In this document: in pieces, positions 16,121-60,655 of the stretch
Layout: the number at the start of each line of letters is the position of its first letter
How positions within the stretch are numbered: position 1 is the first letter of the stretch
From: Candidatus Levyibacteriota bacterium
GTDB lineage: Bacteria; Patescibacteriota; Microgenomatia; Levybacterales; UBA12049
Reading direction: 5' to 3'
Assembly: GCA_009695045.1 (NCBI GenBank)
Contig: SIBS01000002.1
Span: 26,774 to 90,773, forward strand
DNA length: 64,000 bases
Notes under the pieces: model-generated
What the model was told of the DNA's origin: nothing
The model's input: the letters and a program-made list of their open reading frames with translations, nothing else
Databases searched by the model: none
Program-made: the position numbers and the translations under genes

Positions 16121-16558
16121 ATGATAAAAATACATCGTAGGGAAAAAAAGAACAGATTTATTATCCGTTTATATATGATCGTATTTCTGATCATTGTTTT
16201 TTCCCCAGCCATATGTCTATATATCTTATTTAGAACACAAAAATTATTTATAAGTCCATTGCCCAAATCTGTCCATAGGATAGAAAAAAAAATAGCCATA
16301 TATTCTCAATCCGTTAAGGAGTTAGAGTTGCTTTTAGTTAATAAAAAAATACACTTCTTATCAATTAAAGAAGATAATAATCTATCGGCATTTATTATTT
16401 TATTAAAAAATAAAGGTGAGATAATTTTATCTTTAGAAAAAAACCTAGAAGAGCAAGTAGCCTCTTTACAATTAATACTAACTAGATTTACAATAGAAGG
16501 TAAGGGTGTTCGTAGCCTTGATTTTCGTTTCAATAAACCAGTTATTGTATTTTTATAA
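16121..16558 (+). CDS. Minimal FtsQ/DivIB-like division protein (single N-terminal TM, short periplasmic domain)
   Basis: Bitopic topology (basic N-terminus, TM IVFLIIVFSPAICLYILF). The synteny slot between murG and ftsA is normally occupied by ftsQ. Sequence similarity itself is weak; 145 aa. Confidence 0.4.
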   Translation: MIKIHRREKKNRFIIRLYMIVFLIIVFSPAICLYILFRTQKLFISPLPKSVHRIEKKIAIYSQSVKELELLLVNKKIHFLSIKEDNNLSAFIILLKNKGEIILSLEKNLEEQVASLQLILTRFTIEGKGVRSLDFRFNKPVIVFL

Positions 16559-16564
16559 TAAATT

Positions 16565-17869
16565 ATGAGTGATAGTAAAATATTTATTGGAGTTGATATT
16601 GGTACTTCAAAAATTGTTACCGTTATCGCACAGATTGATGAAAACATTAATATTATCGGTGTTTCAGAAATAAAATCTGTTGGAATTAAAAAAGGTCAAA
16701 TTGTAGATATTGAAAATGCAGTTAATTCTATAATTAAATCTCTTGAAGCTGCAGAACGTATGGCTGGATATGGTGCTAAGAATGTTTTCGTTTCAGTTGG
16801 AGGAAGTCATATTGAAAGTCAAAATTCTAATGGAACCGTTGCTGTTTCCTCAAAGCAAGTAGAAATAACTCAGAATGATATTGATCGTGTTATTGATTCA
16901 GCAAGAGCAGTTACGATGCCTTCTTATCGTCAAATTATTCATGTTCTTCCTCGTAATTTTACCGTTGATGGTCAGGAAGGGATAAAAGATCCAATTAGCA
17001 TGACTGGATATGTCTTAAAAGTTGATGCACATATTATTACTGCTAACATTACAAATATTCGAAATATAGAAAGAGCACTTAATGAGGCAGGTGTAAATAT
17101 AGATAATTTTGTTTCAATTGGCTATGCAAGTAGTTTAGCAGTTCTTACTGATACTGAAAAAGAACTAGGCATTGTTCTTGTTGATATTGGATCTGGAACA
17201 ACTAGTATATGTATTTACATAGATGGATCTGTTTCTTTTTCGTCAGTAATTCCTATAGGTGCACGTCATATAACTAGTGATTTGGCGCTTGGACTTAGAA
17301 TATCTATAGAAAGTGCTGAAAAAATAAAGATTCATCTTTCGGGATGCGTAGTTAGAAAAACTATTCGACCAGATGATTTAGAAGGATTATCAGAAAATAA
17401 AATTATAGATAAATCTGATGAACTAGATATTAGCCTCCTTGATATACCAGAAGAATTGAAAAAAATATCTAAAAAAACTTTGATAGAAGGGATTATTAGG
17501 CCGAGGCTTAATGAAATCTTCACTATGGTTGGTCTTGAGATAAAAAGAAGTGGTTATGGTGGAAAAACACCTGCTGGATTAGTTGTTACTGGTGGGGGAT
17601 CAAAAACAGTAGCTATGACAGAAGCTGCTAAGAGAATGCTTTTAATGCCAGTAAGAATTGGTAACCCAAAAGATTTAAAAGGAATTGTTGATGAGGCTGA
17701 TGATCCTTCATTTTCTGCTGTCATTGGTCTTTGTATATTTGCATCTAAAAAAAATTTAAAATCTGAAAATACATTACCATTTAGTTTTTCACTTTCAAAT
17801 ATTCAATTACAATCATTTTATAAATTTTTTAAAAAAATTACCAATCTAATAAAATCTCTTATGCCTTGA
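16565..17869 (+). CDS. ftsA: Cell division protein FtsA
   Basis: Actin-like ATPase; FIGVDIGTSKIVTVIAQ N-terminus and DIGSGTT phosphate-2 motif. Confidence 0.92.
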   Translation: MSDSKIFIGVDIGTSKIVTVIAQIDENINIIGVSEIKSVGIKKGQIVDIENAVNSIIKSLEAAERMAGYGAKNVFVSVGGSHIESQNSNGTVAVSSKQVEITQNDIDRVIDSARAVTMPSYRQIIHVLPRNFTVDGQEGIKDPISMTGYVLKVDAHIITANITNIRNIERALNEAGVNIDNFVSIGYASSLAVLTDTEKELGIVLVDIGSGTTSICIYIDGSVSFSSVIPIGARHITSDLALGLRISIESAEKIKIHLSGCVVRKTIRPDDLEGLSENKIIDKSDELDISLLDIPEELKKISKKTLIEGIIRPRLNEIFTMVGLEIKRSGYGGKTPAGLVVTGGGSKTVAMTEAAKRMLLMPVRIGNPKDLKGIVDEADDPSFSAVIGLCIFASKKNLKSENTLPFSFSLSNIQLQSFYKFFKKITNLIKSLMP

Positions 17870-26750: not shown

Positions 26751-29555
26751 ATGTTTAAGTCTGTAAATCCGCAAGTAGATTTTCCAAAACAAGAAGAAGA
26801 AATACTTGAATTTTGGAAAAAAAATAAAATATTTGAAAAATCATTAGATAAAGATGCGCCGAATGGAAAATGGACATTTCTTGATGGCCCACCTTTTATT
26901 ACAGGTCTTCCGCATTATGGAACATTACTTGTAAGTATTCCTAAAGATGTTTTTCCTCGATTTTGGACAATGCGTGGATATATGGTAAGACGTGTTTGGG
27001 GATGGGATGTTCACGGATTGCCTGCTGAAAATAAAGTAGAAGTTAAGCTGGGCATTGAACGCAAAAAAGATATAGAAGAAAAGATTGGAATTAAGCAATT
27101 TATAGATGAATGTCGTAATTACGTAAGTGAATCTTCAAGGGAATGGGAATGGTATATTGATCATATCGCAAGATGGGTTGATTTTAAAAATGCTTATAAA
27201 ACAATGGATATTTCCTATATGGAATCTGTGATGTGGGTTTTTAAGCAAATGTATGAAAAAGGATATATATATAAGGGACTTCGTGTCTCTCTATATTGTC
27301 CACATTGCTCAACTCCAATCTCTAATTTTGAAGTTGCAATGGATCCTGACAATTATAAAGAGATTACAGAGGCATCAAATACTTATAAATATCAACTTGT
27401 TGAGAGTAGTGATACCTATTTACTTGCATGGTCAACTACGCCGTGGAATAAATTAGTTACATCAGCTCTTGCTGTAAATTCAAAGTTGGATTATGTTAAG
27501 GTCGAACAAGGTAAAGAAAAATATATCTTGGCAAAATCAAAAATAAAAATTTTAGTAGGTGAATATAAAATTATTCAAGAAATAAGTGGTATTGATCTTA
27601 TTGGTCTCTCCTTTGTGCCACATTATGATTTTTATACCATTGATAGTGATAAAAAAGCATTTATAATTGTTGATGGTGATTTCGTTACTGCGGAAGAAGG
27701 AACTGGAATAGTCACTATAGCGGCTTATGGTGAAGAAGATTTAGTTGTTATGCAAAAAGAAAATATTCAAATAATGCTACATGTTGATGATGAAGGAATG
27801 ATTAAAAAAGAAATTCCAAAATGGAACGGAATGTATTACCTAAAGGTAAATAAATTAGTAAATGAAGATTTAGTAAATAGAGGACTAATGTATAAGGAAG
27901 AAGACTATATTCATAAAATTCCTACGTGCTGGCGATGCCATACTAGGCTTATATACGCTCCTCAAAATGCTTGGTATGTTAATGTTCAAATTCTTAAGGA
28001 TAGGATGAGAAAAAATAACGAAGAAGTAAATTGGTTTCCTAAGCACTTTAAAATGGGTCGTTATTTAAAAAGTTTGGAGTCAGCACCAGATTGGTGTATT
28101 TCAAGAAGTAGGTATTGGGGTTCCCCTGTTCCAGTATGGGAGTGTGAATGCGGAGAGCGAATTGTTCCTGGATCAATTGCTGAGCTAGAAGAATTTTCTG
28201 GTAAAAAAATTACTGATTTACATAAGCCTGAAATTGATCAGATAACAATACTTTGTAATAAATGCAAATCTATTACAAAGAGAGTTCCTGAAGTTTTGGA
28301 TAGTTGGATAGAGGCTGGTTCAGCGTCGTTTGCAGAACGTCATTATCCATTTAATGAAAAGGTTAAATTTGCTGATTTCTTCCCTCCAGATTTTATCACT
28401 GAGTATACGGGACAAATTAGAGCTTGGTTTTATGTTTTACATGTTATATCAACTGCCCTATATGATTCAATGGCATTTAAGAACGTTGTTGTAACTGGTG
28501 TAATACTGGGTACCGATGGTAGAAAGATGAGTAAAAATCTAGGAAATTATCCTGATCCAAAAGAGTTATTACAAAAATATGGTGGCGATGCATTACGCCT
28601 TTACCTTATGGGGAGTCCAGTAATGCATGGGGAAGACATGGTTATTTCTGAAGATCAGTATCGAAATCAGATAAAGAATTTTTTATTAGTTTTATGGAAT
28701 ATATATAATTTTTTTGTTTCATATGCATTAATTGATAAGTGGGAGCCAAGTAATTTTAGCAAAGATAATTTAAATATATTGGATAAATGGATATTATCAA
28801 AGCAACAGGATCTTATTATGGAATTAACAGCTTCCTTAGAGGAATATGATACAATGACGGCAATTAATAAAGCTAAGTTATTTATTGATGATTTTTCAAT
28901 GTGGTATATTCGACGAAGTAGAGAGCGAATAGGTCCAAGTGCAAAATTTATATTAGAAAAAAAATCTTTTTATAATACTTGCTACAAAGTATTAACCACA
29001 TTATGTAAACTATTGGCTCCAATCGCTCCTTTTGTTACTGAGGCGATGTATAAAAATCTTACAAATGAGGAATCCGTGCACTTATCTAATTGGCCTCAGT
29101 ACGAATCTTTATTAAGAGATAAGGGGTTAGAGGAGGAAATGGAACGAGCTCGTAAAATAGTAGAAAGAGCGCATGCTCTTCGTAAAGAGCACTCTATAAA
29201 AGTAAGAATTCCATTAAGGAATCTTAATTATTCTGGTCCATTTAAATTAAGTGAAGAAATTAAATTAATAGTGCTTGATGAAATAAATGTTCTAATTCTA
29301 AATTATTTAGGCAAGACAAATGATTATATTGTATCCGGTGAAATGAATGAAGAAAATCAAGATATTATTGCAGGAAAAGCTAGGGATATTATTCGAAGCA
29401 TTCAAGAGGAGAGAAAAAAATTAGGAACTAGAATTGATGAGGAAGTTGATGTTGTTTTACCAAATTGGCCAATTGAATTAGAAAGTGAGATAAAAAGAAA
29501 AGCATTAATTAAATCACTTTCTAAGGGTGATACACTGACTGTAATTAGATTATGA
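26751..29555 (+). CDS. ileS: Isoleucine--tRNA ligase
   Basis: Class I aaRS; HYGTLL (HIGH-like), KMSKN(LG) KMSKS motif, CP1 editing-domain size, and the WCISRSRYWGSPVP motif typical of IleRS. 934 aa. Confidence 0.9.
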   Translation: MFKSVNPQVDFPKQEEEILEFWKKNKIFEKSLDKDAPNGKWTFLDGPPFITGLPHYGTLLVSIPKDVFPRFWTMRGYMVRRVWGWDVHGLPAENKVEVKLGIERKKDIEEKIGIKQFIDECRNYVSESSREWEWYIDHIARWVDFKNAYKTMDISYMESVMWVFKQMYEKGYIYKGLRVSLYCPHCSTPISNFEVAMDPDNYKEITEASNTYKYQLVESSDTYLLAWSTTPWNKLVTSALAVNSKLDYVKVEQGKEKYILAKSKIKILVGEYKIIQEISGIDLIGLSFVPHYDFYTIDSDKKAFIIVDGDFVTAEEGTGIVTIAAYGEEDLVVMQKENIQIMLHVDDEGMIKKEIPKWNGMYYLKVNKLVNEDLVNRGLMYKEEDYIHKIPTCWRCHTRLIYAPQNAWYVNVQILKDRMRKNNEEVNWFPKHFKMGRYLKSLESAPDWCISRSRYWGSPVPVWECECGERIVPGSIAELEEFSGKKITDLHKPEIDQITILCNKCKSITKRVPEVLDSWIEAGSASFAERHYPFNEKVKFADFFPPDFITEYTGQIRAWFYVLHVISTALYDSMAFKNVVVTGVILGTDGRKMSKNLGNYPDPKELLQKYGGDALRLYLMGSPVMHGEDMVISEDQYRNQIKNFLLVLWNIYNFFVSYALIDKWEPSNFSKDNLNILDKWILSKQQDLIMELTASLEEYDTMTAINKAKLFIDDFSMWYIRRSRERIGPSAKFILEKKSFYNTCYKVLTTLCKLLAPIAPFVTEAMYKNLTNEESVHLSNWPQYESLLRDKGLEEEMERARKIVERAHALRKEHSIKVRIPLRNLNYSGPFKLSEEIKLIVLDEINVLILNYLGKTNDYIVSGEMNEENQDIIAGKARDIIRSIQEERKKLGTRIDEEVDVVLPNWPIELESEIKRKALIKSLSKGDTLTVIRL

Positions 29556-30631
29556 ATAAAGGATCTATATTTAAAATAGATTTAGGTTTATTTCTTCCCA
29601 TATTAATTCTTATTACAATAAGCTTAACAGCGCTTTTTTCCTTACAAATTAATTATTTTAATTCTCAGCTTATTTATGTTTTTATTTCTGTCATTGCTTA
29701 TTTTATTTTTTCTCATATAAATGTTCGTATTATGCAGATTTATTCTTGGCAAATTTATATTATATGTTTGATCTCGCTAGTTTTTTTATATTTTTTTGGA
29801 ATAGAAAGTAGAGGAGCAGCTCGTTGGGTTGATATATTTGGTTTTCGTATTCAATTTTCTGAGATTTTTAAACCATTTCTTGCTTTTATTTTAGCTACTT
29901 ATTTATCAAGCCGATCACTTTCATCAAACACTTTTTTTGTAAGTATTTTTTTTACTTTTTTAATATTTATTTTTATTTTAATCCAACCAGACTTAGGAAG
30001 TTCGCTTATTTATGCTACTTCATTACTTATGATATTGCTGGTTGTTGGATTTCCTCTTTTATGGTTTGGTTATGGAATTATTAGTTTTATAGTGGCATCT
30101 CCTTTTATTTGGCAATTAATGCATGATTATCAACGACAAAGAATATTTACTTTTATTAATCCGGCTTCGGATCCACTTGGTAATTCATATAATTCAATAC
30201 AGGCTATAATTGCTATAGGATCAGGAATGCTTTTCGGAAAGGGACTAGGGGAGACTACGCAATCAGGGCTTCGTTTTTTACCAGAACGTCATACTGATTT
30301 TATTTTTGCAACAATATCTGAGGGGCTTGGATTTTTTGGTGCATTAATAATTATTTTATCGATGAGCTTTTTATTGTATAAAATTTATAATATATTTTTG
30401 GATTCTGATGATAAGCTTTGCAAGCTGTACGCGGTACTTGTTTTTTCTATTTTATTCATTCAGTTCGTTTTTAATGTTGGCATGAATATTGGTATTTTAC
30501 CTGTAGTAGGAATTACATTGCCATTTGTATCATATGGAGGAAGCTCATTATTGTCTAATTTTATTTTATTAGGTATCCTTACATCTATTCGCAATATTTC
30601 TCAAGATAAAAAAGTATTGGAAATTAAGTAG
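29552..30631 (+). CDS. rodA: SEDS-family protein (RodA/FtsW paralogue)
   Basis: SEDS motifs QPDLGSSLIY, PERHTDFIFATISEGLGFFG, PFVSYGGSS; second SEDS gene in the window, outside the dcw cluster. Confidence 0.8.
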   Translation: MNKGSIFKIDLGLFLPILILITISLTALFSLQINYFNSQLIYVFISVIAYFIFSHINVRIMQIYSWQIYIICLISLVFLYFFGIESRGAARWVDIFGFRIQFSEIFKPFLAFILATYLSSRSLSSNTFFVSIFFTFLIFIFILIQPDLGSSLIYATSLLMILLVVGFPLLWFGYGIISFIVASPFIWQLMHDYQRQRIFTFINPASDPLGNSYNSIQAIIAIGSGMLFGKGLGETTQSGLRFLPERHTDFIFATISEGLGFFGALIIILSMSFLLYKIYNIFLDSDDKLCKLYAVLVFSILFIQFVFNVGMNIGILPVVGITLPFVSYGGSSLLSNFILLGILTSIRNISQDKKVLEIK

Positions 30632-32803: not shown

Positions 32804-32873
32804 ATAGCATATGATTTTGTCAATGTTAATAAATTATGGTAATATATCTCAGAAATTAGCCAGTATAGTTAAT

Positions 32874-32946
32874 GGACCCTTAGCTCAGTTGGTAGAGCAC
32901 TGCATTCACATTGCAAAGGTCAGAAGTTCGAGACTTCTAGGGTCCA
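32874..32946 (+). tRNA. tRNA-Val (anticodon CAC)
   Basis: Manual cloverleaf: acceptor GGACCCT/AGGGTCC (7 bp), D-stem GCTC/GAGC, anticodon stem CTGCA/TGCAA (4 bp plus a C27-A43 mismatch), loop TTCACAT (U33, CAC, A37), T-stem AGAAG/CTTCT, T-loop TTCGAGA. No encoded CCA. Confidence 0.7.
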
Positions 32947-33064
32947 CAAGATTATATATAAAATTTGTAGTCTTAAGATTATTTTTTAAAGTTATCATTT
33001 TTAATTTATTAAGATATAAAAAATTATTTGGTGAATCAAATATTTTTGTTATAAATCAAAAACT

Positions 33065-34111
33065 ATGACCATTGTCTTTTTTTGTCGATTGTTTTATCCC
33101 CATATTGGTGGTGTGGAAAAACATGTAATGGAAATTGCTAAACGATTAGTTTCACTTGGTAATAAGCTAATAATTATAACAGAATCATCTCTCGAAGTTT
33201 ATTCAGAAGGAAATAAGCCAATTTTATTTGAAATAATTGATAATATTGAAGTATATCGTATTCCAGTTGAAAAGAATGAATCAAGTAAAAAATGGATTAT
33301 CTGGCGATGGATGTGGAAGAATAAGCAAATTTGGCATAATGCTGATATTTTGCACTTTCATGATGTTTTTTTCTGGTATTTGCCGTTTCGATTATTAAAT
33401 TTATCTAAAAATGCATACATAACTTTTCATGGTTATGAGGGTTATCCTCTTAAAAAAAAAGCGGTTTTAATAAGAAAACTTGCTGAAATATTAACAAATG
33501 GAAATATTTGCATAGGAGATTTTATAAAAAAGTGGTATGGAACAAAATCTACATATGTTTCATATGGAGCGGTGAACATTTCTAAAGAGAAAAAAGTTCA
33601 CCAACCTTCTCCATTCTCAGCGCTTTTTTATGGCAGATTGGATAATCAGACTGGGATAACGATATATGATGCTGCAATGATTATAATAAATAAAAAATAT
33701 CCACAATTTTCTCTAACAATTATTGGTGACGGACCCTTGAGAGATAAAATTGATGATAAAATAAGGCGTTTTGGATATCAAATCAATATTTCAGAATATC
33801 TTAAAAATAATAGATTTGTTTTTATTTCTAGCTATCTTTCTATTCTTGAAGCACTTGCTGCCAAAAGACTTGTTTTTGCGGTTTACGATAATCCTATAAA
33901 AAAAGATTATTTAGAGATGGCCCCATTTGCGTCATTTATTATTATCGAAAATAGCCATCAAAAATTAGCTGAAAAAGTTGCCTTTTTTATAAAAAATCCA
34001 ACCTTAGAAGCTTACAAGATTGAAGAAGGATACAAATGGGTCAAAAATCAGACATGGGATAGTGTTGTCAAATTATATTTAAAATTATGGAATAAGCATA
34101 ATATAATATGA
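33065..34111 (+). CDS. GT-B fold glycosyltransferase (GT4-like)
   Basis: N-terminal GT4 start YPHIGGVEKHVMEIAKRL; C-terminal Rossmann half with an EALAAKRLVFAV-type donor-binding region. Confidence 0.6.
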   Translation: MTIVFFCRLFYPHIGGVEKHVMEIAKRLVSLGNKLIIITESSLEVYSEGNKPILFEIIDNIEVYRIPVEKNESSKKWIIWRWMWKNKQIWHNADILHFHDVFFWYLPFRLLNLSKNAYITFHGYEGYPLKKKAVLIRKLAEILTNGNICIGDFIKKWYGTKSTYVSYGAVNISKEKKVHQPSPFSALFYGRLDNQTGITIYDAAMIIINKKYPQFSLTIIGDGPLRDKIDDKIRRFGYQINISEYLKNNRFVFISSYLSILEALAAKRLVFAVYDNPIKKDYLEMAPFASFIIIENSHQKLAEKVAFFIKNPTLEAYKIEEGYKWVKNQTWDSVVKLYLKLWNKHNII

Positions 34112-35043
34112 AAATATCACTTTGTATTACTGTTTTTAATGAAGAAAAATCCATAAAAAGACTCCTTACTAGTATTGAACGTCAAACAAAACTTCCTGAT
34201 GAGATAGTAATTGTTGATGGAGGAAGCATTGATAAGACAATAGATTTTTTAAATAAGCATAAATCATATATTAAACAGGTAAAAATAATTGTAAAAAAAG
34301 GAAATAGAGCAATAGGAAGAAATGAAGCAATACGCCTCGCAACAGGTAATATTATAGCAATAACTGATGCAGGATGTGAGTTAGATAGTCATTGGTTAGA
34401 AGAAATTACTAATCCTTTTGATAGTAAAAAAATACAGGTTGTTAGTGGATATTATAAAGGTAAATCAAAAAATTCATTAGAAGCATCATTAGTTCCATAC
34501 GTGCTGGTAATGCGAGATAAAGTTAATTCTAAAAACTTTCTTCCTTCAACAAGATCTATGGCAATGCGTAAGAATTTGTGGAAACAGCTTGGTGGATTCC
34601 CTATTCAATATACATGGAATGAAGACTTTGTTTTCAGCAAGCAAATAGAAAAAGTCGGTATAATTCCAATTTTTGCAGAAAATGCGATAGTTTTTTGGTT
34701 TCCTCGTGAAACAATCTGGCAAGGGTGGAACATGTTTTATGCATTTGCAAAAGGAGATGCGCAAGCTGATATTTGGCGTCCTAAAGTAATTATTTTATTA
34801 CTTCGTATGATATTTGTCAGCTTCTTTTTCATATATGCAGTTCTTATGCAAAATATACTTGTGTGGCAAATACTTGGAGGGGGAGCAATTTTTTATGGAT
34901 TGTGGGCAATATCCAAGAATTATTGTTATGTAAAAACCCCTATGGCTTTTATTTATTTACCTCTTTGGCAAGTTATTTCAGATAACGCTGTTTTTGTTGG
35001 TACATTTGTGGGTTTTTTTTGGAAAAAAATCAAACAGAAATAA
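34108..35043 (+). CDS. GT2 glycosyltransferase with two C-terminal TM helices (polyprenyl-phosphate sugar synthase-like: DPM1/GtrB/ArnC type)
   Basis: ISLCITVFNEEKSIKRLLTSI...EIVIVDGGSIDKT (GT-A DxD region) plus C-terminal hydrophobic helices (VIILLLRMIFVSFFFIYAVLM, ILGGGAIFYGLWAI). Confidence 0.6.
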   Translation: MKISLCITVFNEEKSIKRLLTSIERQTKLPDEIVIVDGGSIDKTIDFLNKHKSYIKQVKIIVKKGNRAIGRNEAIRLATGNIIAITDAGCELDSHWLEEITNPFDSKKIQVVSGYYKGKSKNSLEASLVPYVLVMRDKVNSKNFLPSTRSMAMRKNLWKQLGGFPIQYTWNEDFVFSKQIEKVGIIPIFAENAIVFWFPRETIWQGWNMFYAFAKGDAQADIWRPKVIILLLRMIFVSFFFIYAVLMQNILVWQILGGGAIFYGLWAISKNYCYVKTPMAFIYLPLWQVISDNAVFVGTFVGFFWKKIKQK

Positions 35044-35241
35044 TAAGATAAAAAATATATAAATATTTTTTTTATTTTGTTATTTTTTACATCATCAATA
35101 TTTATTAAAAAAATCTAATAGCTTCTATTGATCTTATAATTAACAATAAAATGTACAAGTACTATCAAAAATAGCGTTATATTTATATGAATACAGAAGA
35201 AATAGCTTTGAGTGAATTAATTAAGTATAATAAGAATAGTT

Positions 35242-36459
35242 ATGGGATATATGACTCATGTAATAAAAGGAATTTCTTGGGTGGGATTATTCCGATTTGG
35301 CACAAGAGGCATATCTTTTTTTAGAATTGCCATAATTGCTCGCATTCTTTCTCCATTACAGTTTGGTTTATTTGGTATTGCATCATTAATGTTATCTATG
35401 ATAGAAGTCATAACAGAGATAGGTATAAATGTAATTTTATTACAAATTAAAGAAAAAATTGATGAATATATAAATACTGCATGGATAATATCTATTATTA
35501 GGGGTATTTTAATTTTTTTTATTATTTTTATATCATCATTTATTATGGTGAAATTTTTCAACGCAGCAGATGCAATATATCTTATTATGTTGATTAGTCT
35601 TGTTCCATTAATTCGAGGATTTATTAATCCTGCGATTATTAAATTTCAAAAGGATCTTCTTTTTGAAAAAGAATTTTATTATAGAACTGCGATTTTTTTT
35701 GTTGAATCTATTGTTACAATAACTCTGGTTATGTTATTGCAATCACCTAGCGCATTGATTTGGGGATTAATTGCAGGCGCTTTTTTTGAGGTTATTATTT
35801 CCTTTTATTTCATACGACCGATTCCTAAAATTATCTTTAATTATGTTATTGCAAGACATATAATTTCTCGCGGAAAATGGATGAATATGACTAGTATTTT
35901 TTCTTATTTTTTTCAAAACGGTGATAAAATTGCTGTTGGACGAATTATTGGAATTAGTGCCTTAGGTATTTATGAAATGGCATATAAAATAGCTATGCTT
36001 CCAATTACAGAGATTTCAAATGTAATCGTTAGGGTTACATTTCCTGTATATCTAAGGATAGCAGATGATAAAGCAAGAATGCGTAAGGCGTATTTCCAAA
36101 GTCTTTTGTTGGTTGCAGTTGTCAGTGTCCCGATTGGATTAATTTTTATTATTTTTCCTCAAGATATAGTAAAAATTATTTTAGGGCAAAAATGGTTAGT
36201 TGCTGCGCCCGTGTTTCAGGTATTGGCTATTGTTGGAGTTATTCAAGCAATCATGGGGGATTCTGGTGCCATATTTTTAGCAAATAAAAAACAAGAATAT
36301 ACGACAATTAATACAGGGATTAGTTTTTTGATTATGGCAATCATGATAGTTCCATTAACGCATGCATACGGATTAATTGGCGCAGGACTTGCAGTAATTG
36401 TTGGTGCTGTTGCAACGCTTCCCGTTACTATTTATTTTTTAGTAAAACTTTTAAAATAA
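35242..36459 (+). CDS. MOP-superfamily polysaccharide/oligosaccharide flippase (Wzx-like)
   Basis: About 12 predicted TM helices, 405 aa, with the typical Wzx arrangement inside a glycosyltransferase cluster. Confidence 0.55.
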   Translation: MGYMTHVIKGISWVGLFRFGTRGISFFRIAIIARILSPLQFGLFGIASLMLSMIEVITEIGINVILLQIKEKIDEYINTAWIISIIRGILIFFIIFISSFIMVKFFNAADAIYLIMLISLVPLIRGFINPAIIKFQKDLLFEKEFYYRTAIFFVESIVTITLVMLLQSPSALIWGLIAGAFFEVIISFYFIRPIPKIIFNYVIARHIISRGKWMNMTSIFSYFFQNGDKIAVGRIIGISALGIYEMAYKIAMLPITEISNVIVRVTFPVYLRIADDKARMRKAYFQSLLLVAVVSVPIGLIFIIFPQDIVKIILGQKWLVAAPVFQVLAIVGVIQAIMGDSGAIFLANKKQEYTTINTGISFLIMAIMIVPLTHAYGLIGAGLAVIVGAVATLPVTIYFLVKLLK

Positions 36460-36631
36460 TATTTTATAAAGCATGTTGATTTCAATATTTATTCAATGTG
36501 CTATTATATATAATTGTCACAGATTAAGAATTTAAAAAATGAAGAAATTTTATACAAAATATTGAATAGTCTCTTTATTATGTGTATGTATATTAAAAAT
36601 GAAAGTAGACAAAAGTAGATAAAAAGAAAAT

Positions 36632-37735
36632 ATGAAAATTGCATTATTTCATGAAGTAGTTATTGGAGGAGCTAGAAGCTGCGCAAATGAATTTGCTAAA
36701 TCACTTCGAGAAAAAAAGCACATAGTAGATTTATATATTGTTGATAAAGAATATCCGATAGGAGAAAAAAAATATTATAATGAAATATATTATTACCCTT
36801 TTATTTCAAAAGATTGGAGAGGAAATAGTTGGAAAAATAAGCTATATAAGGATACAGTAGAGATCTATAAATTATACACACTTCATAAAAAAATCGCAAA
36901 TGATATTGAAAAAAAATCATATGATTTTGCTTTTATCCATCCATCTCAATATACACAAGCACCATTTTTGCTTCGTTTTTTGAAAATCTCAAAGCTATAT
37001 TATTGTCAAGAATCACTGAGGATGATTTATGAAAAAAGTTTTGATGAAACAGAAAATTTAGATATATTTAAAAAACGATATGAAAGAATTACTCGAAAAA
37101 TACGAAAAATATTGGATAGAAAAAATATTTCATCAGCAGATATAATTTTTACTAATTCTACTTTTACACAGAATAATATATGGAAAGCATATCATTTAAA
37201 AAGTATCATATGTCATATGGGGGTTGATACGAAAATATTTTTTGAAACAACAAAGAATAAAGATATAGATATTCTATATATTGGATCCGAAGATCCTATT
37301 GATGGATATGAATTATTCAATGAATCACGAAAATATATTAAAACAAAACTAAGTATAGATTATTTATTGCGTGGAAAAAAATGGTTAAGCGGAAAAAAGC
37401 TTATCGATTACTATAGTAGAGCAAAAATAGTTATTTGTTTTGGACAACGTGAACCGTTTGGGTTAGTGCCCATTGAGGCAATGAGCTGTGGAGCAATAGT
37501 AATTGCCTTAAATGAGGGTGGATATAAGGATTCAGTACAAGATAAAATAACAGGATTTTTAGTGTCTAAGAATCCTGTAACTATAGCAAAAGTTATTAAT
37601 AATGCTTTAAAACATCCAATTCTTTTGAATAGTATGTCAGAAAAATCAAAAGAAGAAATAAAAAAAAATTGGTTATGGAAAAATAGTATGGAAATAATTT
37701 TATTTAATTATGCAATATGGAAAAAAAACCAGTAG
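36632..37735 (+). CDS. GT4-family glycosyltransferase
   Basis: C-terminal FGQREPFGLVPIEAMSCGAIVIALNEGGYKDSV carries the GT4 E-x7-E donor motif. Confidence 0.7.
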   Translation: MKIALFHEVVIGGARSCANEFAKSLREKKHIVDLYIVDKEYPIGEKKYYNEIYYYPFISKDWRGNSWKNKLYKDTVEIYKLYTLHKKIANDIEKKSYDFAFIHPSQYTQAPFLLRFLKISKLYYCQESLRMIYEKSFDETENLDIFKKRYERITRKIRKILDRKNISSADIIFTNSTFTQNNIWKAYHLKSIICHMGVDTKIFFETTKNKDIDILYIGSEDPIDGYELFNESRKYIKTKLSIDYLLRGKKWLSGKKLIDYYSRAKIVICFGQREPFGLVPIEAMSCGAIVIALNEGGYKDSVQDKITGFLVSKNPVTIAKVINNALKHPILLNSMSEKSKEEIKKNWLWKNSMEIILFNYAIWKKNQ

Positions 37736-39924
37736 TTAGCATCATTATAGTTCATTATCAAGTAAAAAAACAATTATTTAATTGTCTTCAATCTATTTAT
37801 GAAAAAAAGTCTAAATATCATTTTGAAATTATTGTTATTGATAATGATGAAAATCCATATATAGAAAAATATCTCGTAAAGAAATTTCCTAGAGTTAAAT
37901 ATATAAAAAATGAGATTAATAATGGGTATAGTGGGGGAAATAATCTCGGTGCATTATCTTCAAAGGGAGAATTTATTTTTTTCCTCAATCCTGATACTCT
38001 TTTTAAAAATAATGTCTTAGATCAATTGTTAATAAAAATGATGACATATAAATATATTGGCATAGTAGCTCCTTTGCTTTTTAAGGAAAACGGAAAACCA
38101 TTCATACTGCAAGGATCGAAAGAACTTACACCTTTACGAGCAATTTTTTCTTTATCATTTATATATAAATTATTTCCCAATAATAATATTGCAAATGAAT
38201 TTTGGTTAAAAAAATGGAATAAAAAAGAACATAAAGAAGTAGAAGTAGTTCCTGGAACTGCTTTTATGATACGAAAAAATATTTTTAAAAAAATAGGTGG
38301 ATTTGATGAAAATTATTTCCTTTATTTCGAGGAAAATGATATTTGTAAAAGAGTCATAGACTTAGGTAGTAAAATATATATGATATCAGATGCTCATGTT
38401 ATACATTTTTGGGGAGAAAGTACAAAAAAGAGTACAAAAAATATTAAAGCAATTTTTGAAAAAAGTAGATTTTATTATTTTAATAAATTTTATGGACTAC
38501 CTAAGGCATTCTTGGTAGAATTTATGCTTATTTTTTCAAAAGAAATATTATTTTTAATCGCCATTTTATTTTTAGCGGGATGGCTTCGCTTGCATGAGAT
38601 TGAAAGATACTTTCCATTTTTAGGAGATTTTGCATGGTTTTATATTTCAGCTCGAGATTTGTTAATTGATGGTATTTTTCCTTTCGTAGGTATTGCTTCA
38701 AGTCATCCATGGATTCATCAAGGTGCATTTTGGACATATCTTTTGGCTCCAGCACTTGCTATGGGTAATTTTAATCCAATTGCAGGAGGATATCTGTCTG
38801 GTAGTATTGGAATTTTAACAGTTTTAATTTTATATATTTGTACAAAAAATATGTTTGATAGAAGAATAGCAATTTTTACTAGTGCTTTTTTTGCAACATC
38901 ACCTTTGGTTGTTTTTCACTCAAGACTTCCATATCATACAGTACCTATTCCATTATTTGTTATATTATATTTTTATAGTTTGAATAAATGGGTCAAGGGA
39001 AATATTTATTATTTTCCTTTATCGTTGTTTTTTTTAGTAGTATTATATAATTTTGAATTGGCGACTTCAGTTTTTTCTCTACTTATTATCTGTCTTTTGG
39101 GATACGGTATTTATATAAAAGCAATATGGATAAAAAAATTATGGACTAAGAAAATAATATCGTTTTCAATTATTGCAGTATTAATTCCTTTATTGCCAAT
39201 GCTTTTTTATGATTTTTATCATGGATTTTCTCAGACATTACTATTTTTAATATGGATTGGATATAGATTTCTTTTAGTTTTAGGATATCCATCATTACAT
39301 CCTGAAATAAAAACAATTACATTTTCTAGCATGATCTATTTTATTAAAAATAATATACAAAATTACTATTATGTTTCATCATGGATATTTGCATTTTTTT
39401 TAGGAATAATAAGTATTTCTATTTGTGGCATATTATTTATTAAAAATAAAACATTAACTTATGCAATACTTTTTTTAGGAATATTAATTCCTGGTATTAT
39501 AATTTTTTTCAGTAGAGTTCCATCTGAAGCATATTTACCAATGTTTTTTCCACAATTAGCAATATGCATTGGTATAGCATTCTCTTATTTGTATAAATAT
39601 TCACCAAATTATTCATGGATAATAGTAGTTTTTTTTATATTTTTAATTATTTCAAATTCCGTCAATATCATTTCTAAAAATTTCTTGACTAAAAATGAAA
39701 ATAAATTCTATAAAAAAATTGTAGCCGCTCAAGAAATTATCTCACTTGCAGAAGGAAAAGAATACATTATACTAGGAGGAGGAATAAATGGTAAATTTGA
39801 AAGCTTTATTATGCCATATAAATATTTGACCTGGTTTTTGGGTTATTCTGAAAATAAGAAAGCTAAAATAAAGATAGAAGTGTCAGAAGATGAAATGGGT
39901 ATATATTTAAAAAAATATGATTAG
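37717..39924 (+). CDS. Fusion protein: N-terminal GT2 (GT-A) glycosyltransferase plus a C-terminal ~450-aa polytopic membrane domain (GT-C / PMT-ArnT-like)
   Basis: N-terminal VSIIIVHYQ...IIVIDNDENPY...NNGYSGGNNLG...FLNPDT...FDENYFLYFEENDICKR (GT2 DxD and ED motifs). At least 10 hydrophobic helices follow from ~aa 270, with aromatic/acidic-rich loops (FLGDFAWFYISARDL). Confidence 0.65.
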   Translation: MEKKPVVSIIIVHYQVKKQLFNCLQSIYEKKSKYHFEIIVIDNDENPYIEKYLVKKFPRVKYIKNEINNGYSGGNNLGALSSKGEFIFFLNPDTLFKNNVLDQLLIKMMTYKYIGIVAPLLFKENGKPFILQGSKELTPLRAIFSLSFIYKLFPNNNIANEFWLKKWNKKEHKEVEVVPGTAFMIRKNIFKKIGGFDENYFLYFEENDICKRVIDLGSKIYMISDAHVIHFWGESTKKSTKNIKAIFEKSRFYYFNKFYGLPKAFLVEFMLIFSKEILFLIAILFLAGWLRLHEIERYFPFLGDFAWFYISARDLLIDGIFPFVGIASSHPWIHQGAFWTYLLAPALAMGNFNPIAGGYLSGSIGILTVLILYICTKNMFDRRIAIFTSAFFATSPLVVFHSRLPYHTVPIPLFVILYFYSLNKWVKGNIYYFPLSLFFLVVLYNFELATSVFSLLIICLLGYGIYIKAIWIKKLWTKKIISFSIIAVLIPLLPMLFYDFYHGFSQTLLFLIWIGYRFLLVLGYPSLHPEIKTITFSSMIYFIKNNIQNYYYVSSWIFAFFLGIISISICGILFIKNKTLTYAILFLGILIPGIIIFFSRVPSEAYLPMFFPQLAICIGIAFSYLYKYSPNYSWIIVVFFIFLIISNSVNIISKNFLTKNENKFYKKIVAAQEIISLAEGKEYIILGGGINGKFESFIMPYKYLTWFLGYSENKKAKIKIEVSEDEMGIYLKKYD

Positions 39925-40654
39925 TGCAGTTATACTTACTCGAAATGAAGAAAAAAATATCATTGACTGTATGGAAAGTCTTTATTTTTGTAATGAAATA
40001 GTTATTATTGATGATGTTTCCACAGATAGAACAGTTGAAATTGCAAAAAAAGCAGGAGCTATAGTTTATGAGCATGAATTAAATAATAATTTCTCAAAAC
40101 AAAGAAACTTTGGATTGGAAAAAGCTAAAAATGAATGGATACTATTTATAGATGCAGATGAGAGAATATCAGTAGACTTAAAAAATGAAATAAAATATAA
40201 AATTTTAAAAAAAGGAATAAATGGTTACTCTATTAAAAGAAGTGATTTTTTTTATGGTAAAAAATTATTCCATGGTGAAACATCAAGTATATCGTTAGTT
40301 AGATTAGGAAAAAAAAATCATGGCCTGTGGGATGGTGCAGTGCATGAAGAATGGAAAATTAATGGAAAAATATCTATACTTGATACTCCTTTATTGCATT
40401 ATCCTCATCCTACAATAAATGAATTTTTATTGGAGATAAATTTCTATACTGATTTAAATGCAATGGAATTATTTAATAAAGGAATAAGAGCTACATGGTA
40501 TGATGTTATCATATATCCTGTCGCAAAATTTATACATAATTTTATAATAAGAGCTGGTTTCCAAGATGGAGTTGCTGGAATGATTATTGCAATCATGATG
40601 AGTTTTCATTCATTCTTGGTTAGAGCTAAATTACTAAAATATAATGAAAATTAG
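39917..40654 (+). CDS. GT2 glycosyltransferase (soluble, WaaE/KdtX-like)
   Basis: ISAVILTRNEEKNIIDCMESL...IVIIDDVSTDRT...ILFIDADERI GT-A motifs. Confidence 0.7.
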   Translation: MISAVILTRNEEKNIIDCMESLYFCNEIVIIDDVSTDRTVEIAKKAGAIVYEHELNNNFSKQRNFGLEKAKNEWILFIDADERISVDLKNEIKYKILKKGINGYSIKRSDFFYGKKLFHGETSSISLVRLGKKNHGLWDGAVHEEWKINGKISILDTPLLHYPHPTINEFLLEINFYTDLNAMELFNKGIRATWYDVIIYPVAKFIHNFIIRAGFQDGVAGMIIAIMMSFHSFLVRAKLLKYNEN

Positions 40655-40756
40655 AAAAAATAATATTTCTTATATATCACCTTTTTATATATATATATTT
40701 TTTGTAGTTTATATATTATTCGATTATATACAATATCTTCTTTGCAGGGTTAAAAT

Positions 40757-42343
40757 ATGTTTTCCTTTGCATTTTTAATAACATTATATTCATATACAAT
40801 ATTTTTTATTGGAATTATTGGATTATTATATAAAAATGTAATAGTCTCTATCTCATTATTTTATTCATTTATTGCTATCTACTTATTTTTAAAGAAAAAA
40901 TTATATATTTTATCTCTAAAAATAAATTCAAAAATAGAAGTATTATTTATTAGCATTATCAGTTTACAAGCATTGATAAATATAATAGGCGCATTGGGTC
41001 CGGAATTATCATTTGATTCACTTTGGTATCATCTTACCTTGCCTAAATTGTATTTATTAAATAATAGGATTATGTTTATTCCGGGGGGACTTCTTTATTA
41101 CTCTGCTATGCCAAAACTCTCAGAGATGATATATTTAGGAATTCTAGCGATAAAAAGTGAAGTCTTTGTAAAGATATGTCACTATTTTTTTGGAATCTTT
41201 TCAATTATTGCATTATTTAATTTTTCAAAAAAAATATATTCCAGAACTATATCTTTAATAATCGTAACTATTTTTTACTCAAATTTAGTTGTTGCATGGG
41301 AATCTATAACCTCATATATCGACTTAATTAGAACATTTTATGAAATATTAGCTTTTATATCATTTTACAATTGGATTGAATATAAAAATAAACGATGGCT
41401 AGTATATTCTGCTATTTTATTAGGATCAGCAATATCTGTAAAAATTATTTCTTTTTTTTCACTTATTATTTATTTTATATTAATTATTGTAAACTTTATT
41501 AATCATAAATCATCAATTTATAATTTATTTATTAATTTATTTATATATATATTTATAGCTTTAATTATTCCACTCCCATGGTTTATTTTTTCATATATTA
41601 ATACAGGAAATTTAATTTATCCATTTTTTAATTTATTAAATCATGCAATATTGATAGATCTTCCAAGCTCTTTTGTAAATTTTATATATAAGATCATATT
41701 ATTATTTCTTCGTTCCCCAGATCCTATTTCACCATTATATTTTATATTTATTCCTCTCATATTTATTTATAAATCAAAAAATAAAAATATTATATATTTT
41801 TATATTTATGCATTCATAGCTTTACTTGCATGTATTTTAACTTCAAGTACTGGGGGAAGTAGATTTTTAATGCCATATCTACCAATATGGACACTAATTA
41901 TTGGTGATGTTATTCAAAATATTTATAATATTAAATTCAAAAAATTTATTATTATAATAATAATTATTTTTTCTTTTATCTCGGTACCTTATCGTTTTAT
42001 TGCAAATATACGCTTTATCCCTGTTATACTAGGACTAGAGAGTAAAAATAATTTTCTTAAAAATAATTTAAATTTTAATTTTGGAGATTTTTATGATATT
42101 GATGGATATTTGGATAAAAAAATTAATTATAATGATTCGGTTTTAATATATGATATTCATAATCTTTATTATATAGATTTTCCATATATTCATGAAAGTT
42201 GGTTAAAAAAAAATGATAAGTATAATTTTATAATTTCCAGATCAGTTATTTTTCCATTGAATTTAGATAAAAATAAATGGAAATTAATTTATAGAAATTT
42301 TAAATCAAACGTAATCTTATACGGTAAAATATATGATAATTAA
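40757..42343 (+). CDS. Polytopic membrane protein, putative GT-C glycosyltransferase (PMT/ArnT/GT39-83-like)
   Basis: 528 aa, 11 or more TM helices, with the first large loop carrying acidic/aromatic residues (GPELSFDSLWYHLTLPKLY). Assignment is by architecture and context, not by a strong motif. Confidence 0.45.
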   Translation: MFSFAFLITLYSYTIFFIGIIGLLYKNVIVSISLFYSFIAIYLFLKKKLYILSLKINSKIEVLFISIISLQALINIIGALGPELSFDSLWYHLTLPKLYLLNNRIMFIPGGLLYYSAMPKLSEMIYLGILAIKSEVFVKICHYFFGIFSIIALFNFSKKIYSRTISLIIVTIFYSNLVVAWESITSYIDLIRTFYEILAFISFYNWIEYKNKRWLVYSAILLGSAISVKIISFFSLIIYFILIIVNFINHKSSIYNLFINLFIYIFIALIIPLPWFIFSYINTGNLIYPFFNLLNHAILIDLPSSFVNFIYKIILLFLRSPDPISPLYFIFIPLIFIYKSKNKNIIYFYIYAFIALLACILTSSTGGSRFLMPYLPIWTLIIGDVIQNIYNIKFKKFIIIIIIIFSFISVPYRFIANIRFIPVILGLESKNNFLKNNLNFNFGDFYDIDGYLDKKINYNDSVLIYDIHNLYYIDFPYIHESWLKKNDKYNFIISRSVIFPLNLDKNKWKLIYRNFKSNVILYGKIYDN

Positions 42344-43535
42344 AATTTTTATTTTTATACTTTTTTTGATTTATCCATCTGGCGAAGTTCTTCGTTTTAA
42401 TGTCTATCCAAACGTTTCCCTAACAGTTAATGATATTTGTGTTGGACTTTTTGTCTTTGTATTAATTATATTTAATAATCTAAAAAATTTACCATTTAAA
42501 AATAATATATATATATTTATTGGAGTATGTATCTTATCTTTGTTATATAATTTCGAAAGATTTACTTTTACTCAAATATTTATTTCATCTTTATATATTT
42601 TTAGATGGATTATATATTTTAACCTTTTTTTTATATTTTTTAATCTTAAAGACTATAAATTTACAGAAAAACTTATGATTTTTTCTGGATTTATTTTTAC
42701 TATTTTTGGATATATTCAATATTTTTTTTATAATAATTTAAAAAATCTATATTATTTGGGATGGGATGATCATTTATACCGTTTATTTTCAACATTTCTT
42801 GATCCTAATTTTTCTGGAGCCTTTTTAGTACTTTATTTATTTTTTTTAGTTGGAATCTATTATTCACAAAAGTTAATTTCTTACAAGAAATTAACTTTAT
42901 ATTTAATTCTATTTACTATTCCAGCAATATTTTTAACTTATTCTCGTTCTTCTCTTATAATGCTTATTACAGGTGGATTTTTTCTATTATGGTTTTTAAA
43001 TAAAAAAAAACAAATTATTTATTTTATTTTAATTATTATTCTATTTGTTGTAACTTCTTTTAAATATTCTACAATTGAAAATATGAATCTTTTGAGAACA
43101 GCATCTATTAATGCAAGAATATCAAGTGCTAAAGAAGCAATTACTATAATAATAGATAATCCATTAATAGGTATTGGTTTTAATACATATAGATATACTC
43201 AATTAAAATATAAATTTAGAACTGATAACATACCATATATTAGTCATTCAGATGCTGGAACTGATAATAGCTTCCTTTTTATCTTAGCAACAACAGGGAT
43301 AATTGGATTAATATCTTTTAGTTTATTAATTTACCAAATAATAAATAAAACTTACATATCAATGATAAAATATAATAATATTTATGCTCCTATATTTATA
43401 TCATCTTTTATTGGAATACTAGTAAACTCTCAATTTATAAATAGTTTATTTTATCCATTTATAATGGAATGGTTATGGATTCTTTTGGCGTTATCAGTAA
43501 GACAAAAAAATATTAAGGAGAGTAATTTAATTTAA
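42333..43535 (+). CDS. Wzy_C-domain protein (O-antigen ligase/polymerase or PglL-like O-oligosaccharyltransferase family)
   Basis: Polytopic. The conserved Wzy_C loop region (PAIFLTYSRSSLIMLITGGFFLLWF) resembles the (T/S)xSRGAxLG motif; a periplasmic loop lies near ~aa 250-330. Confidence 0.55.
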   Translation: MIIKIFIFILFLIYPSGEVLRFNVYPNVSLTVNDICVGLFVFVLIIFNNLKNLPFKNNIYIFIGVCILSLLYNFERFTFTQIFISSLYIFRWIIYFNLFFIFFNLKDYKFTEKLMIFSGFIFTIFGYIQYFFYNNLKNLYYLGWDDHLYRLFSTFLDPNFSGAFLVLYLFFLVGIYYSQKLISYKKLTLYLILFTIPAIFLTYSRSSLIMLITGGFFLLWFLNKKKQIIYFILIIILFVVTSFKYSTIENMNLLRTASINARISSAKEAITIIIDNPLIGIGFNTYRYTQLKYKFRTDNIPYISHSDAGTDNSFLFILATTGIIGLISFSLLIYQIINKTYISMIKYNNIYAPIFISSFIGILVNSQFINSLFYPFIMEWLWILLALSVRQKNIKESNLI

Positions 43536-44220
43536 TTTCCCTTTTTGTCTTATTTGTTGCGATATCTTCTGCAATTACTATAATTTTATTCTCACCGTTT
43601 TGAAGATTTATTTCATACTCAAAAAATCCATTATCATTAACAATTGCCCATATTCCATTTATTGTTATTTTAACATCTGAATCAGTTTTTCCTTTTATTT
43701 TAATTTTATTATCTTTAGAAAAAGATTCTCCCTCTCGTGGAGAATCTATGGCTAGCGAAGGTGGTTCTTTTTTATACTCAATAATTATTTTATTTGAAAA
43801 ATCTGTTATTTTTTTATCAATAATTGCCTTCGTAAGAATAGTATTTTTACCTTTTTTTAAATATATATTCGAAAAAACAAATGATCCATTATCATTTGTT
43901 TTAGTTTTTTCAATTTCAATTTCATTTATAAAAAGGATTATTATTTGTTTTGATCCAGATGATCCACTTATTTCCAATATCGCACTACTTGTTGCAATTT
44001 GCTGCGTATTAAGTGTTGGTGGTTGAATAAAATTATTCTTATTTTCTGAAATTTCTACTATATTTTTTGTTCCAGATAAAAATGTACTTACCCATATAAT
44101 TATAGGTATTAGAAATTTCATTAATAAAAAAATCAGAATTATTATCCCAATAATATTGATAAAGAGTTTTTTTTTAGTTCTATTTTCTAATCTTCTTGAA
44201 AGTCTACTATTATTGATCAT
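43513..44220 (-). CDS. Signal-anchored surface protein with two Ig-like/beta-sandwich repeats
   Basis: N-terminal basic plus TM (KKLFINIIGIIILIFLLMKFLIPIIIW). Internal repeat NDNGSFVFSNIYLKKGKNTILTKAIID // NDNGFFEYEINLQNGENKIIVIAEDIATN is characteristic of bacterial Ig-like domains. Confidence 0.5.
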   Translation of the reverse strand: MINNSRLSRRLENRTKKKLFINIIGIIILIFLLMKFLIPIIIWVSTFLSGTKNIVEISENKNNFIQPPTLNTQQIATSSAILEISGSSGSKQIIILFINEIEIEKTKTNDNGSFVFSNIYLKKGKNTILTKAIIDKKITDFSNKIIIEYKKEPPSLAIDSPREGESFSKDNKIKIKGKTDSDVKITINGIWAIVNDNGFFEYEINLQNGENKIIVIAEDIATNKTKREIKLNYSP

Positions 44221-44234
44221 GGTTTATATTTATG

Positions 44235-44307
44235 AGCCGATGGTGAGATTTGAACTCACGACTTGCTCTTTACGAAAGAGCTACTCTACCAACTGAGTTA
44301 CATCGGC
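44235..44307 (-). tRNA. tRNA-Thr (anticodon CGT)
   Basis: Reverse complement folds as acceptor GCCGATG/CATCGGC, D-stem ACTC/GAGT, anticodon stem GCTCT/AGAGC, loop TTCGTAA (CGT), T-stem GTGAG/CTCAC, T-loop TTCAAAT, discriminator T. Confidence 0.8.
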
Positions 44308-59887: not shown

Positions 59888-60655
59888 TTAATGATTAAGT
59901 TTATTTAAAATATAATTATGTGCTTCAAATTCAAGAGAATCATCAAGGGGAATTAATTTAATTATTTTATGATACTTAATCTCTAAGGCTTTTTTTATTA
60001 TCAAATCTGCTAGATGTGGATTTTTTGGTAAAATAGGGCCATGAAAATAGGTACCAAAACTATTTTTATATATTGCCCCTTCTGTTTTATCTATGCCATT
60101 ATTACCAAAACCAAAAGTAACTATACCTAATGGAGAAATATTATTACCCAAATATGTTCTGCCCCCATGATTTTCAAAACCAACAAGCGTATTTGATTTT
60201 AAATCATCAATAGTAGGATTAATTATAATATCGCCAACTAAACGTTTTGCATTTATCTCTAGATTTTCAGTATAAATATCAAATATTTTAAGACCTTGAA
60301 TTATATCTCCATCTGCTTTTTTATAATATTTACCTAATAACTGATATGCACCGCAAATATATAGTCCTGGAATATTATTTTCAATCATCTTTGAGATACT
60401 ATTTATTTTATCTTTTGTTAAATCAGTTGATACAATTTCTTGTTGTTTATCTTGTGCGCCACCCATAAATAATATGTTACATTCAATTAAATCTTTTATT
60501 TTAAATCCTATTTCAAGTTTTCTTATTTCAATATCAATGTCTCGCCATTCACATCGTTTGGAAAGCGAAATAATATTACCCCTATCACCATATGTACTCA
60601 TAAGCTCAGGGTAAAGCCATCCTATTATTAATGAGTATTTTATTTTCTTTTTCAT
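59888..60655 (-). CDS. gatD: Lipid II isoglutaminyl synthase glutaminase subunit GatD (CobB/CobQ-like class I glutamine amidotransferase)
   Basis: Catalytic Cys in LYICGAYQLLG and His in GTYFHGPILPKNPHLADLII. About 250 aa, immediately downstream of murT. Confidence 0.75.
   Translation of the reverse strand: MKKKIKYSLIIGWLYPELMSTYGDRGNIISLSKRCEWRDIDIEIRKLEIGFKIKDLIECNILFMGGAQDKQQEIVSTDLTKDKINSISKMIENNIPGLYICGAYQLLGKYYKKADGDIIQGLKIFDIYTENLEINAKRLVGDIIINPTIDDLKSNTLVGFENHGGRTYLGNNISPLGIVTFGFGNNGIDKTEGAIYKNSFGTYFHGPILPKNPHLADLIIKKALEIKYHKIIKLIPLDDSLEFEAHNYILNKLNH

Follow-up and report, generated by a model that had tools for sequence, protein, structure and literature searches.

The stretch of DNA considered here (the window) comprises 64,000 nucleotides (nt) of contig SIBS01000002.1, positions 26,774 to 90,773 of the forward strand, in assembly GCA_009695045.1 of a Candidatus Levyibacteriota bacterium. 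An open reading frame (ORF) at positions 37717..39924 of the window (+) encodes a protein of 735 amino acids (aa), which carries a glycosyltransferase family 2 (GT2) catalytic domain in its N-terminal half and a polytopic membrane domain in its C-terminal half. An earlier note on this DNA had described the gene as a fusion of a cytoplasmic GT2 with a GT-C-like membrane domain. Our analysis confirms that it is a genuine fusion gene, coding for a single polypeptide in which a cytoplasmic GT2 is followed by a membrane domain of GT-C fold.

One reading frame for a GT2 and a GT-C domain

The ORF opens with ATG and runs to its stop codon without interruption; near nt 38500, where the earlier note had seen a risk of an overlooked stop or frameshift, neither is found. 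The GC content of the window is ~21-34% and that of the genome ~27%, and because the DNA is so AT-rich (~27% GC) an ORF of 2.2 kb could not have arisen by chance. As previously described, its start shares 19 nt with the end of the preceding GT4 gene (36632..37735), and its stop shares 8 nt (ATGATTAG) with the start of the following GT2 gene (39917..40654). The overlaps are compatible with translational coupling, while the tight co-translation that had been read from them is not demonstrated by overlaps.

The architecture is widespread. A homologue search against 5.8 billion proteins returned 652 matches, and the best 120 of these, to which the following figures refer, are ~713-771 aa in length (one has 1092 aa), share 42-61% identity with the fusion protein, cover ~97-100% of it and stem from a large number of independent assemblies. 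Most of them carry precomputed Pfam GT2 and PMT_2 domains. The identical protein is found on 3 contigs, and a protein of the window is 100% identical to an NCBI entry with the name 'MAG: glycosyltransferase [Candidatus Levybacteria bacterium]' (MAG, metagenome-assembled genome), which marks the source as a Patescibacteria genome of the candidate phyla radiation (CPR). The relative of 1092 aa, P0073, matches the GT-C profile in two stretches; it could be a longer variant with several domains, or a product of merging in gene calling.

An AlphaFold2 model of the full-length protein, built from an alignment of 58 sequences, reaches a mean predicted local distance difference test (pLDDT) score of 91.5 and a predicted template modelling score (pTM) of 0.86. 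Both folds are modelled confidently, and so are the helices at the junction (residues 243-259, 261-272 and 275-292). That an assembly error or a frameshift joined two separate genes has virtually no chance of being right and is rejected: nothing speaks in its favour, and the ORF is intact, the junction helices are modelled with high confidence, the identical protein occurs on separate contigs and more than 100 homologues from independent assemblies share the continuous ~730-aa architecture.

The features of the fusion gene are as follows (TM, transmembrane helix).

37717..39924 (+): whole ORF; GT2, interface helices, GT-C, small C-terminal domain
37717..38442 (+): GT-A-fold GT2 catalytic domain, residues 1-242, presumably cytoplasmic
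37840..37848 (+): D42-N43-D44 ('DND'), putative nucleotide-binding motif; N43 invariant, D42 and D44 at least 90% conserved
37987..37995 (+): N91-P92-D93, all invariant; DxD-equivalent of COG1216-type GT2s, putative metal/diphosphate ligand
38329..38340 (+): E205-E206-N207-D208 ('FEExD'); D208 invariant, putative catalytic base region; E205-E206 at least 90% conserved
38404..38406 (+): H230, invariant; putative second metal ligand
38443..38532 (+): linker from GT2 to TM1; two helices, residues 243-259 (amphipathic) and 261-272 (hydrophobic)
38533..39696 (+): GT-C-fold membrane domain, residues 273-660, ~13 predicted membrane helices
38626..38628 (+): D304, in the first loop after TM1, within G-D-x-x-W-F-Y; candidate GT-C catalytic acid
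38656..38658 (+): D314 ('A-R-D'), same loop as D304, ~80-85% conserved
39211..39213 (+): D499, in the motif Y-D-x-x-H-G-F-P-Q-T, 97-98% conserved
39697..39924 (+): small C-terminal alpha/beta domain, residues 661-735

The N-terminal half has a Rossmann-like GT-A fold. Pfam PF00535 matches residues 8-193 with E 1.7e-17 and 64.3 bits, against a cutoff of 23.3 bits, and is matched by 58/58 relatives. The DND and ED motifs of the earlier note are both present, the latter in the stretch E205-E206-N207-D208 that also matches Pfam Glyco_transf_7C. The DxD-equivalent is more likely N-P-D, a role that we take from the pattern of COG1216 enzymes, GlfT2 and ppGalNAc-Ts, and H230 is presumably a metal ligand by analogy to the DxH...H arrangement of ppGalNAc-Ts and GlfT2. 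By these analogies, the conserved acidic and histidine residues would bind nucleotide sugar and metal and provide the catalytic base.

As to subtype, the NCBIfam models for rhamnosyltransferase (TIGR01556), HpsN and MftF are matched by 58/58 family members, the models for ArnC, PpgS, dolichyl-phosphate hexose transferase (DPhHxTase) and AglJ by 0/58 and PgfS by 1/58. All of these matches lie far under the equivalog cutoffs (e.g. 47 bits against 200 for TIGR01556), so that the GT2 half is orthologous to no named enzyme. When PDB sequences were searched by phmmer with the GT2 half, no DPMS, GtrB or ArnC appeared at E<=1. The GT2 half is not nearer to polyprenyl-phosphate sugar synthases (DPM1/GtrB/ArnC/PpgS) than to other GT2s.

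For the C-terminal half, the earlier note had proposed a GT-C of PMT/ArnT type. At the level of the family this holds, with PMT_2 (PF13231) matched at E<=1e-3 by 51/58 relatives (best 1.6e-10); the fusion protein itself matches weakly (E 0.0054, 17.4 bits), under the 26.1-bit cutoff. A profile of the domain found 0 matches at E<=10 among PDB sequences, and its likeness to GT-Cs comes from fold comparison instead. The AlphaFold2 model of this half has a clear, polytopic GT-C fold and compares with known GT-Cs as listed here, with the two figures of the comparison after each name.

STT3B: 23.0; 406
ALG12: 22.8; 386
Pmt4: 22.6; 347
Pmt2: 21.2; 349
ALG9: 20.9; 378
PglB: 20.5; 383
AglB: 20.1; 380
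ArnT: 19.8; 397
AftA: 18.5; 373

D304 lies 12 residues past TM1 and is conserved in 100% of fused and 98% of stand-alone forms of the domain. Further near-invariant polar positions are S329, H334-Q335-G336, R403, Y406-H407, E447, D499, Q506 and Y606; for D304, S329, G336, R403, D499 and Q506 conservation is 93-100%, whether the form is fused or stand-alone. In the small C-terminal domain Y703, L704, W706 and G709 are conserved, with the consensus Y-L-T-W-W-L-G and the variant TWFLG in the fusion protein. The consensus recalls the WWDYG motif of oligosaccharyltransferases, from which it differs. NCBIfam archaeo_STT3 is weakly matched by 5/58 relatives.

By analogy to other GT-Cs we assume an N-in topology, under which the GT2 half would be cytoplasmic and the loop with D304 external. 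The C-terminal domain would be extracytoplasmic if the 13 predicted helices are correct. Plain alternation of the helices puts several conserved polar motifs on the cytoplasmic side, a doubtful placement.

A conserved operon in which both domains also stand alone

The fusion gene is the fifth gene of a tightly packed operon of nine co-directional genes that spans 33065-43535 with intergenic gaps of at most 198 nt. Its neighbours are listed below.

33065..34111 (+): GT4 glycosyltransferase, first operon gene
34108..35043 (+): membrane GT2, hyaluronan-synthase/PcManGT-like
35242..36459 (+): Wzx-type flippase (Polysacc_synt_3, E 6e-63)
36632..37735 (+): GT4 glycosyltransferase
39917..40654 (+): small GT2, 245 aa
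40757..42343 (+): second GT-C (PMT_2 family), polytopic protein of 528 aa, assigned by Pfam matches of its orthologues
42333..43535 (+): Wzy_C domain protein (O-antigen ligase / polymerase / O-oligosaccharyltransferase-like)
43513..44220 (-): convergent, membrane-anchored protein with Ig-like (Glucodextran_B) domain

A tblastn survey covered 80 loci on contigs from one genome per species. The order GT4, GT2, Wzx, GT4, fusion, GT2, GT-C, Wzy_C is kept in ~40 of them, from Levybacteria and other Microgenomates. Loci in this same order (L008, L009, L012-L015, L017, L019, L020 and others) come from many TPA_asm MAGs titled 'uncultured Gammaproteobacteria bacterium'; their proteins are 35-46% identical, the operon is of the Levybacteria type and the taxonomic label looks wrong.

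A profile of the GT-C domain retrieves fused proteins of ~730 aa as well as stand-alone ones of ~455-490 aa, 209 and 89 respectively among the full-length matches retrieved. At E<=1e-30 its matches form 612 clusters (50% identity), and of the 150 clusters with the best scores about half are fused forms. Loci of the split forms were viewed over +/-8 kb. Within this range four loci (L030, L033, L038 and L040) have a GT-C at the same operon position and no orthologue of the GT2 half. In L040 a GT-C of 484 aa directly follows the GT4 gene, in L030 and L033 other GT4s precede the GT-C and in L038 an opposite-strand gene of 642 aa does. Conversely, L028, L034 and L036 have a GT2 orthologue of 250-280 aa (49-52% identity) at the position of the fusion and no GT-C nearby. 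These three proteins stop exactly past the helix 261-272 and keep all catalytic residues; N91-P92-D93, D208, H230 and E205-E206 are retained in every one of them in the alignment. The GT2 half does not obligately co-occur with a GT-C in the range viewed.

The nearest neighbour of 40/89 stand-alone GT-Cs is a fused protein. A crude neighbour-joining tree of the GT-C domain requires at least 47 changes of state over 199 tips, against a mean of 65 with shuffled labels, and fused and stand-alone states clearly interleave on it. The fusion looks like a convenience that was often gained and lost rather than a new mechanism.

Among the neighbouring genes, the small GT2 has as its nearest solved relatives the Listeria flagellin O-GlcNAc transferase GmaR (E 7e-20) and the peptide S-glycosyltransferase SunS, a likeness that hints at protein as the glycosylation target of the operon. 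It lies downstream of the fusion, GT-C or GT2 position in nearly all related loci that reach that far, usually adjacent. The 528-aa protein has no Pfam or NCBIfam match of its own; in related loci, however, 10/10 orthologues exceed the PMT_2 gathering cutoff (with 28-38 bits), and for this reason we count two GT-Cs in the operon. It occurs in many, not all, related clusters, and hhalign relates it weakly to the GT-C profile of the fusion (probability 24%). The gene for the Ig-like protein overlaps the Wzy_C gene by 23 nt and is syntenic in most related loci; its product could be an acceptor or accessory protein.

The operon and the convergent Ig-like gene are flanked by tRNA-Val (32874-32947, +) and tRNA-Thr (44234-44307, -). 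An 85-aa ORF at 32811-33068 is spurious and overlaps the tRNA-Val gene. GC content falls to 0.21-0.25 over 38-44 kb. Relatives with conserved flanks differ in the glycosyltransferases in between, much like O-antigen-like variable loci. A scan of 32-45 kb for promoters and terminators gave counts not above those of shuffled sequence and is uninformative on operon structure. Upstream lies a peptidoglycan and division cluster (791-17869) with Mur ligases, MurA, GlmS, a DegT-type aminotransferase, FemAB, MraY, FtsW, MurG and FtsA, and housekeeping genes lie downstream. A second FtsW/RodA paralogue is found at 29552-30631 and GatD/MurT genes at 59888-61998.

Two proposed active sites on one chain

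On balance we lean towards a bifunctional glycosyltransferase whose two active sites are separate, one on either side of the cytoplasmic membrane, and both serve one envelope-glycan pathway. This pathway would be a conserved cell-envelope glycan (or protein-glycosylation) route of the Wzx type in Levybacteria and other Microgenomates. The GT2 half would be a Leloir-type, metal-dependent, inverting enzyme, similar to COG1216 proteins, rhamnosyltransferases, GlfT and ppGalNAc-Ts, that extends a lipid-linked glycan intermediate from nucleotide sugar at the inner face, as one of five cytoplasmic, cassette-like glycosyltransferases of the operon. After the intermediate is flipped, the GT-C half, a member of the PMT_2 superfamily, would by analogy move a polyprenyl-phosphate-linked sugar to an acceptor at the outer face. 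The likely catalytic acid is D304, in what would be the first external loop, and it may correspond to ArnT D55 or PglB D56. The fusion may tether a peripheral GT2 to the membrane, fix the stoichiometry of the two steps and ensure co-expression rather than substrate channelling. The two activities would not be obligately coupled, and the donor of the GT-C half would not be made by the GT2 half. Of this picture the data show the ORF, both folds, the conservation of residues, the synteny and the separability of the domains, whereas topology, substrates, the order in which the steps occur and the kind of product are inferred.

Several points weigh against this assignment. The topology derives from hydropathy and GT-C precedent and not from model coordinates. 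Beyond the +/-8 kb viewed at split-form loci a missing partner could be encoded elsewhere, and the neighbour-joining tree behind the count of fusions and fissions is crude. The nearest structural and sequence neighbours are no proof of acceptor specificity. The operon contains no recognisable polyprenyl-phosphate sugar synthase of the GtrB/DPMS/ArnC type and no initiating phosphoglycosyltransferase, and neither was found among the other window ORFs that were scanned (a subset of the ORFs). As no synthase was found, nothing yet accounts for the GT-C donor, and there is scope for the GT2 half to be its supplier.

A serious if unlikely alternative is transfer en bloc. Here the GT2 half would add a late or final sugar to a polyprenyl-diphosphate-linked oligosaccharide, and after export by Wzx the GT-C half would transfer the whole glycan to protein or polymer, in the manner of an oligosaccharyltransferase, ligase or polymerase. 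This would agree with the presence of Wzx in the operon where a monosaccharide-donor synthase is not recognisable, with the matches of relatives to archaeo_STT3 and with the conserved Y-L-x-W-(W)-L-G motif of the C-terminal domain. However, the Pfam assignment is PMT_2 and not STT3, WWDYG itself is absent, the Wzy_C protein is already a candidate ligase, polymerase or O-oligosaccharyltransferase (O-OTase), and the domains are separable.

In the earlier note, the fusion was taken to link the making of a donor with its use in extracytoplasmic transfer. The GT2 half would make a polyprenyl-phosphate monosaccharide inside which, once flipped, feeds its own GT-C half, so that the protein would be a self-contained machine similar to GtrB plus GtrC. 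The topology fits such a machine, with the GT2 in the cytoplasm and directly ahead of TM1 of a GT-C in N-in orientation, and so do the two interface-like helices (residues 243-272) that hold the GT2 at the membrane; DPMS and GtrB are likewise held at the membrane by interface helices. In known three-component systems the genes for GT2 and GT-C are often adjacent. No other protein of the operon is recognisable as a polyprenyl-phosphate sugar synthase, the membrane GT2 at 34108-35043 being hyaluronan-synthase/PcManGT-like. Against this stand the 89 stand-alone GT-C orthologues, with at least 4 syntenic loci that lack the GT2 half, the at least 3 loci that have it with no GT-C nearby, and the conservation of GT-C residues, which is equal with or without the GT2 half. 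There is also no GtrA-type small flippase among the nine operon genes scanned. Neither the GT2 subtype nor the phyletic pattern supports the coupling, which we consider improbable; some room for it is kept, as the donor of the GT-C half has yet to be accounted for. We are equally doubtful that a COG1216-type GT2 acts as dedicated synthase or finisher of the lipid-linked donor for its own attached GT-C; GT2s of the COG1216 subtype are not known to glycosylate polyprenyl phosphate.

That the GT-C half has degenerated into a non-catalytic membrane anchor or scaffold of the GT2 half is hardly credible. The fusion protein does fall below the PMT_2 cutoff, and its domain profile has no relatives among PDB sequences, but the GT-C fold is modelled confidently, polar loop residues are strictly conserved (D304 and S329 100%, D499 and Q506 97%), and the 89 stand-alone forms, where there is no partner to be anchored, conserve them to the same degree.

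The bifunctional reading also has to be set beside characterised systems. In contrast to GtrA/GtrB/GtrC, CsbB/GtcA/YfhO, GacI/GacL and ArnC/ArnT, the GT2 and the GT-C are here one polypeptide; the GT2 half differs from the GtrB/ArnC/DPM1 type of the three-component systems, a GtrA-type flippase is missing from the operon and the domains are independent in relatives. The best structural and profile matches of the GT2 half are the COG1216-type GT2s (WbbL-like rhamnosyltransferases, GlfT1/GlfT2, WrtF) and the catalytic domain of ppGalNAc-T. It shares with them the motif set N-P-D, FEExD and His and, presumably, action at the cytoplasmic face, and it differs in being covalently joined to a GT-C and in profile matches that stay far below the family cutoffs. 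With the PMT_2 or ArnT-like GT-Cs (PF13231; COG1807) the C-terminal half shares the GT-C fold, the PMT_2 matches of most family members and perhaps, in D304, the conserved acid in the first loop after TM1, whereas the fusion protein lies below the Pfam cutoff, has no detectable sequence similarity to solved GT-Cs and carries an N-terminal GT2.

The mycobacterial Ppm1 fusion, to which the protein had been compared, is a loose analogy. Ppm1 of Mycobacterium tuberculosis (Rv2051c) consists of an N-terminal Lnt acyltransferase and a C-terminal DPM1-type polyprenyl-phosphate-mannose (PPM) synthase, and the halves are separate genes in related species (PMC3460810). Both are thus two-domain membrane proteins that contain a GT2 and whose halves occur apart in relatives. 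Unlike the fusion protein, Ppm1 has no GT-C, the reverse domain order and another GT2 subtype; the fusion protein gave no match to an Lnt/CN-hydrolase domain.

Meaning for the envelope of Levybacteria

Judged by the present evidence, neither half stands out from other members of its well-known fold. Public databases already contain proteins of the combined architecture, which is common in CPR genomes; some members are listed by the Joint Genome Institute (JGI) as 'GT2 family glycosyltransferase/4-amino-4-deoxy-L-arabinose transferase-like glycosyltransferase'. A literature search found no paper on a GT2-GT-C fusion or a CPR glycan cluster, and, as far as we found in the literature searched, there is no characterised case of an inside GT-A and an outside GT-C active site on one chain. 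Should the GT2 half after all supply the donor of its own GT-C half, one polypeptide would perform a whole glycosylation step, its cytoplasmic as well as its extracytoplasmic half, and the absence of a GtrB-type enzyme from the operon would be explained. The confident model as one rigid unit could make the protein a convenient structural system for cytoplasmic and extracytoplasmic steps on lipid-linked glycans. The fused family is abundant in CPR bacteria and Microgenomates, whose cell envelopes are almost unstudied, and the conserved nine-gene operon is a candidate for a core surface-glycan or protein-glycosylation pathway of Levybacteria.

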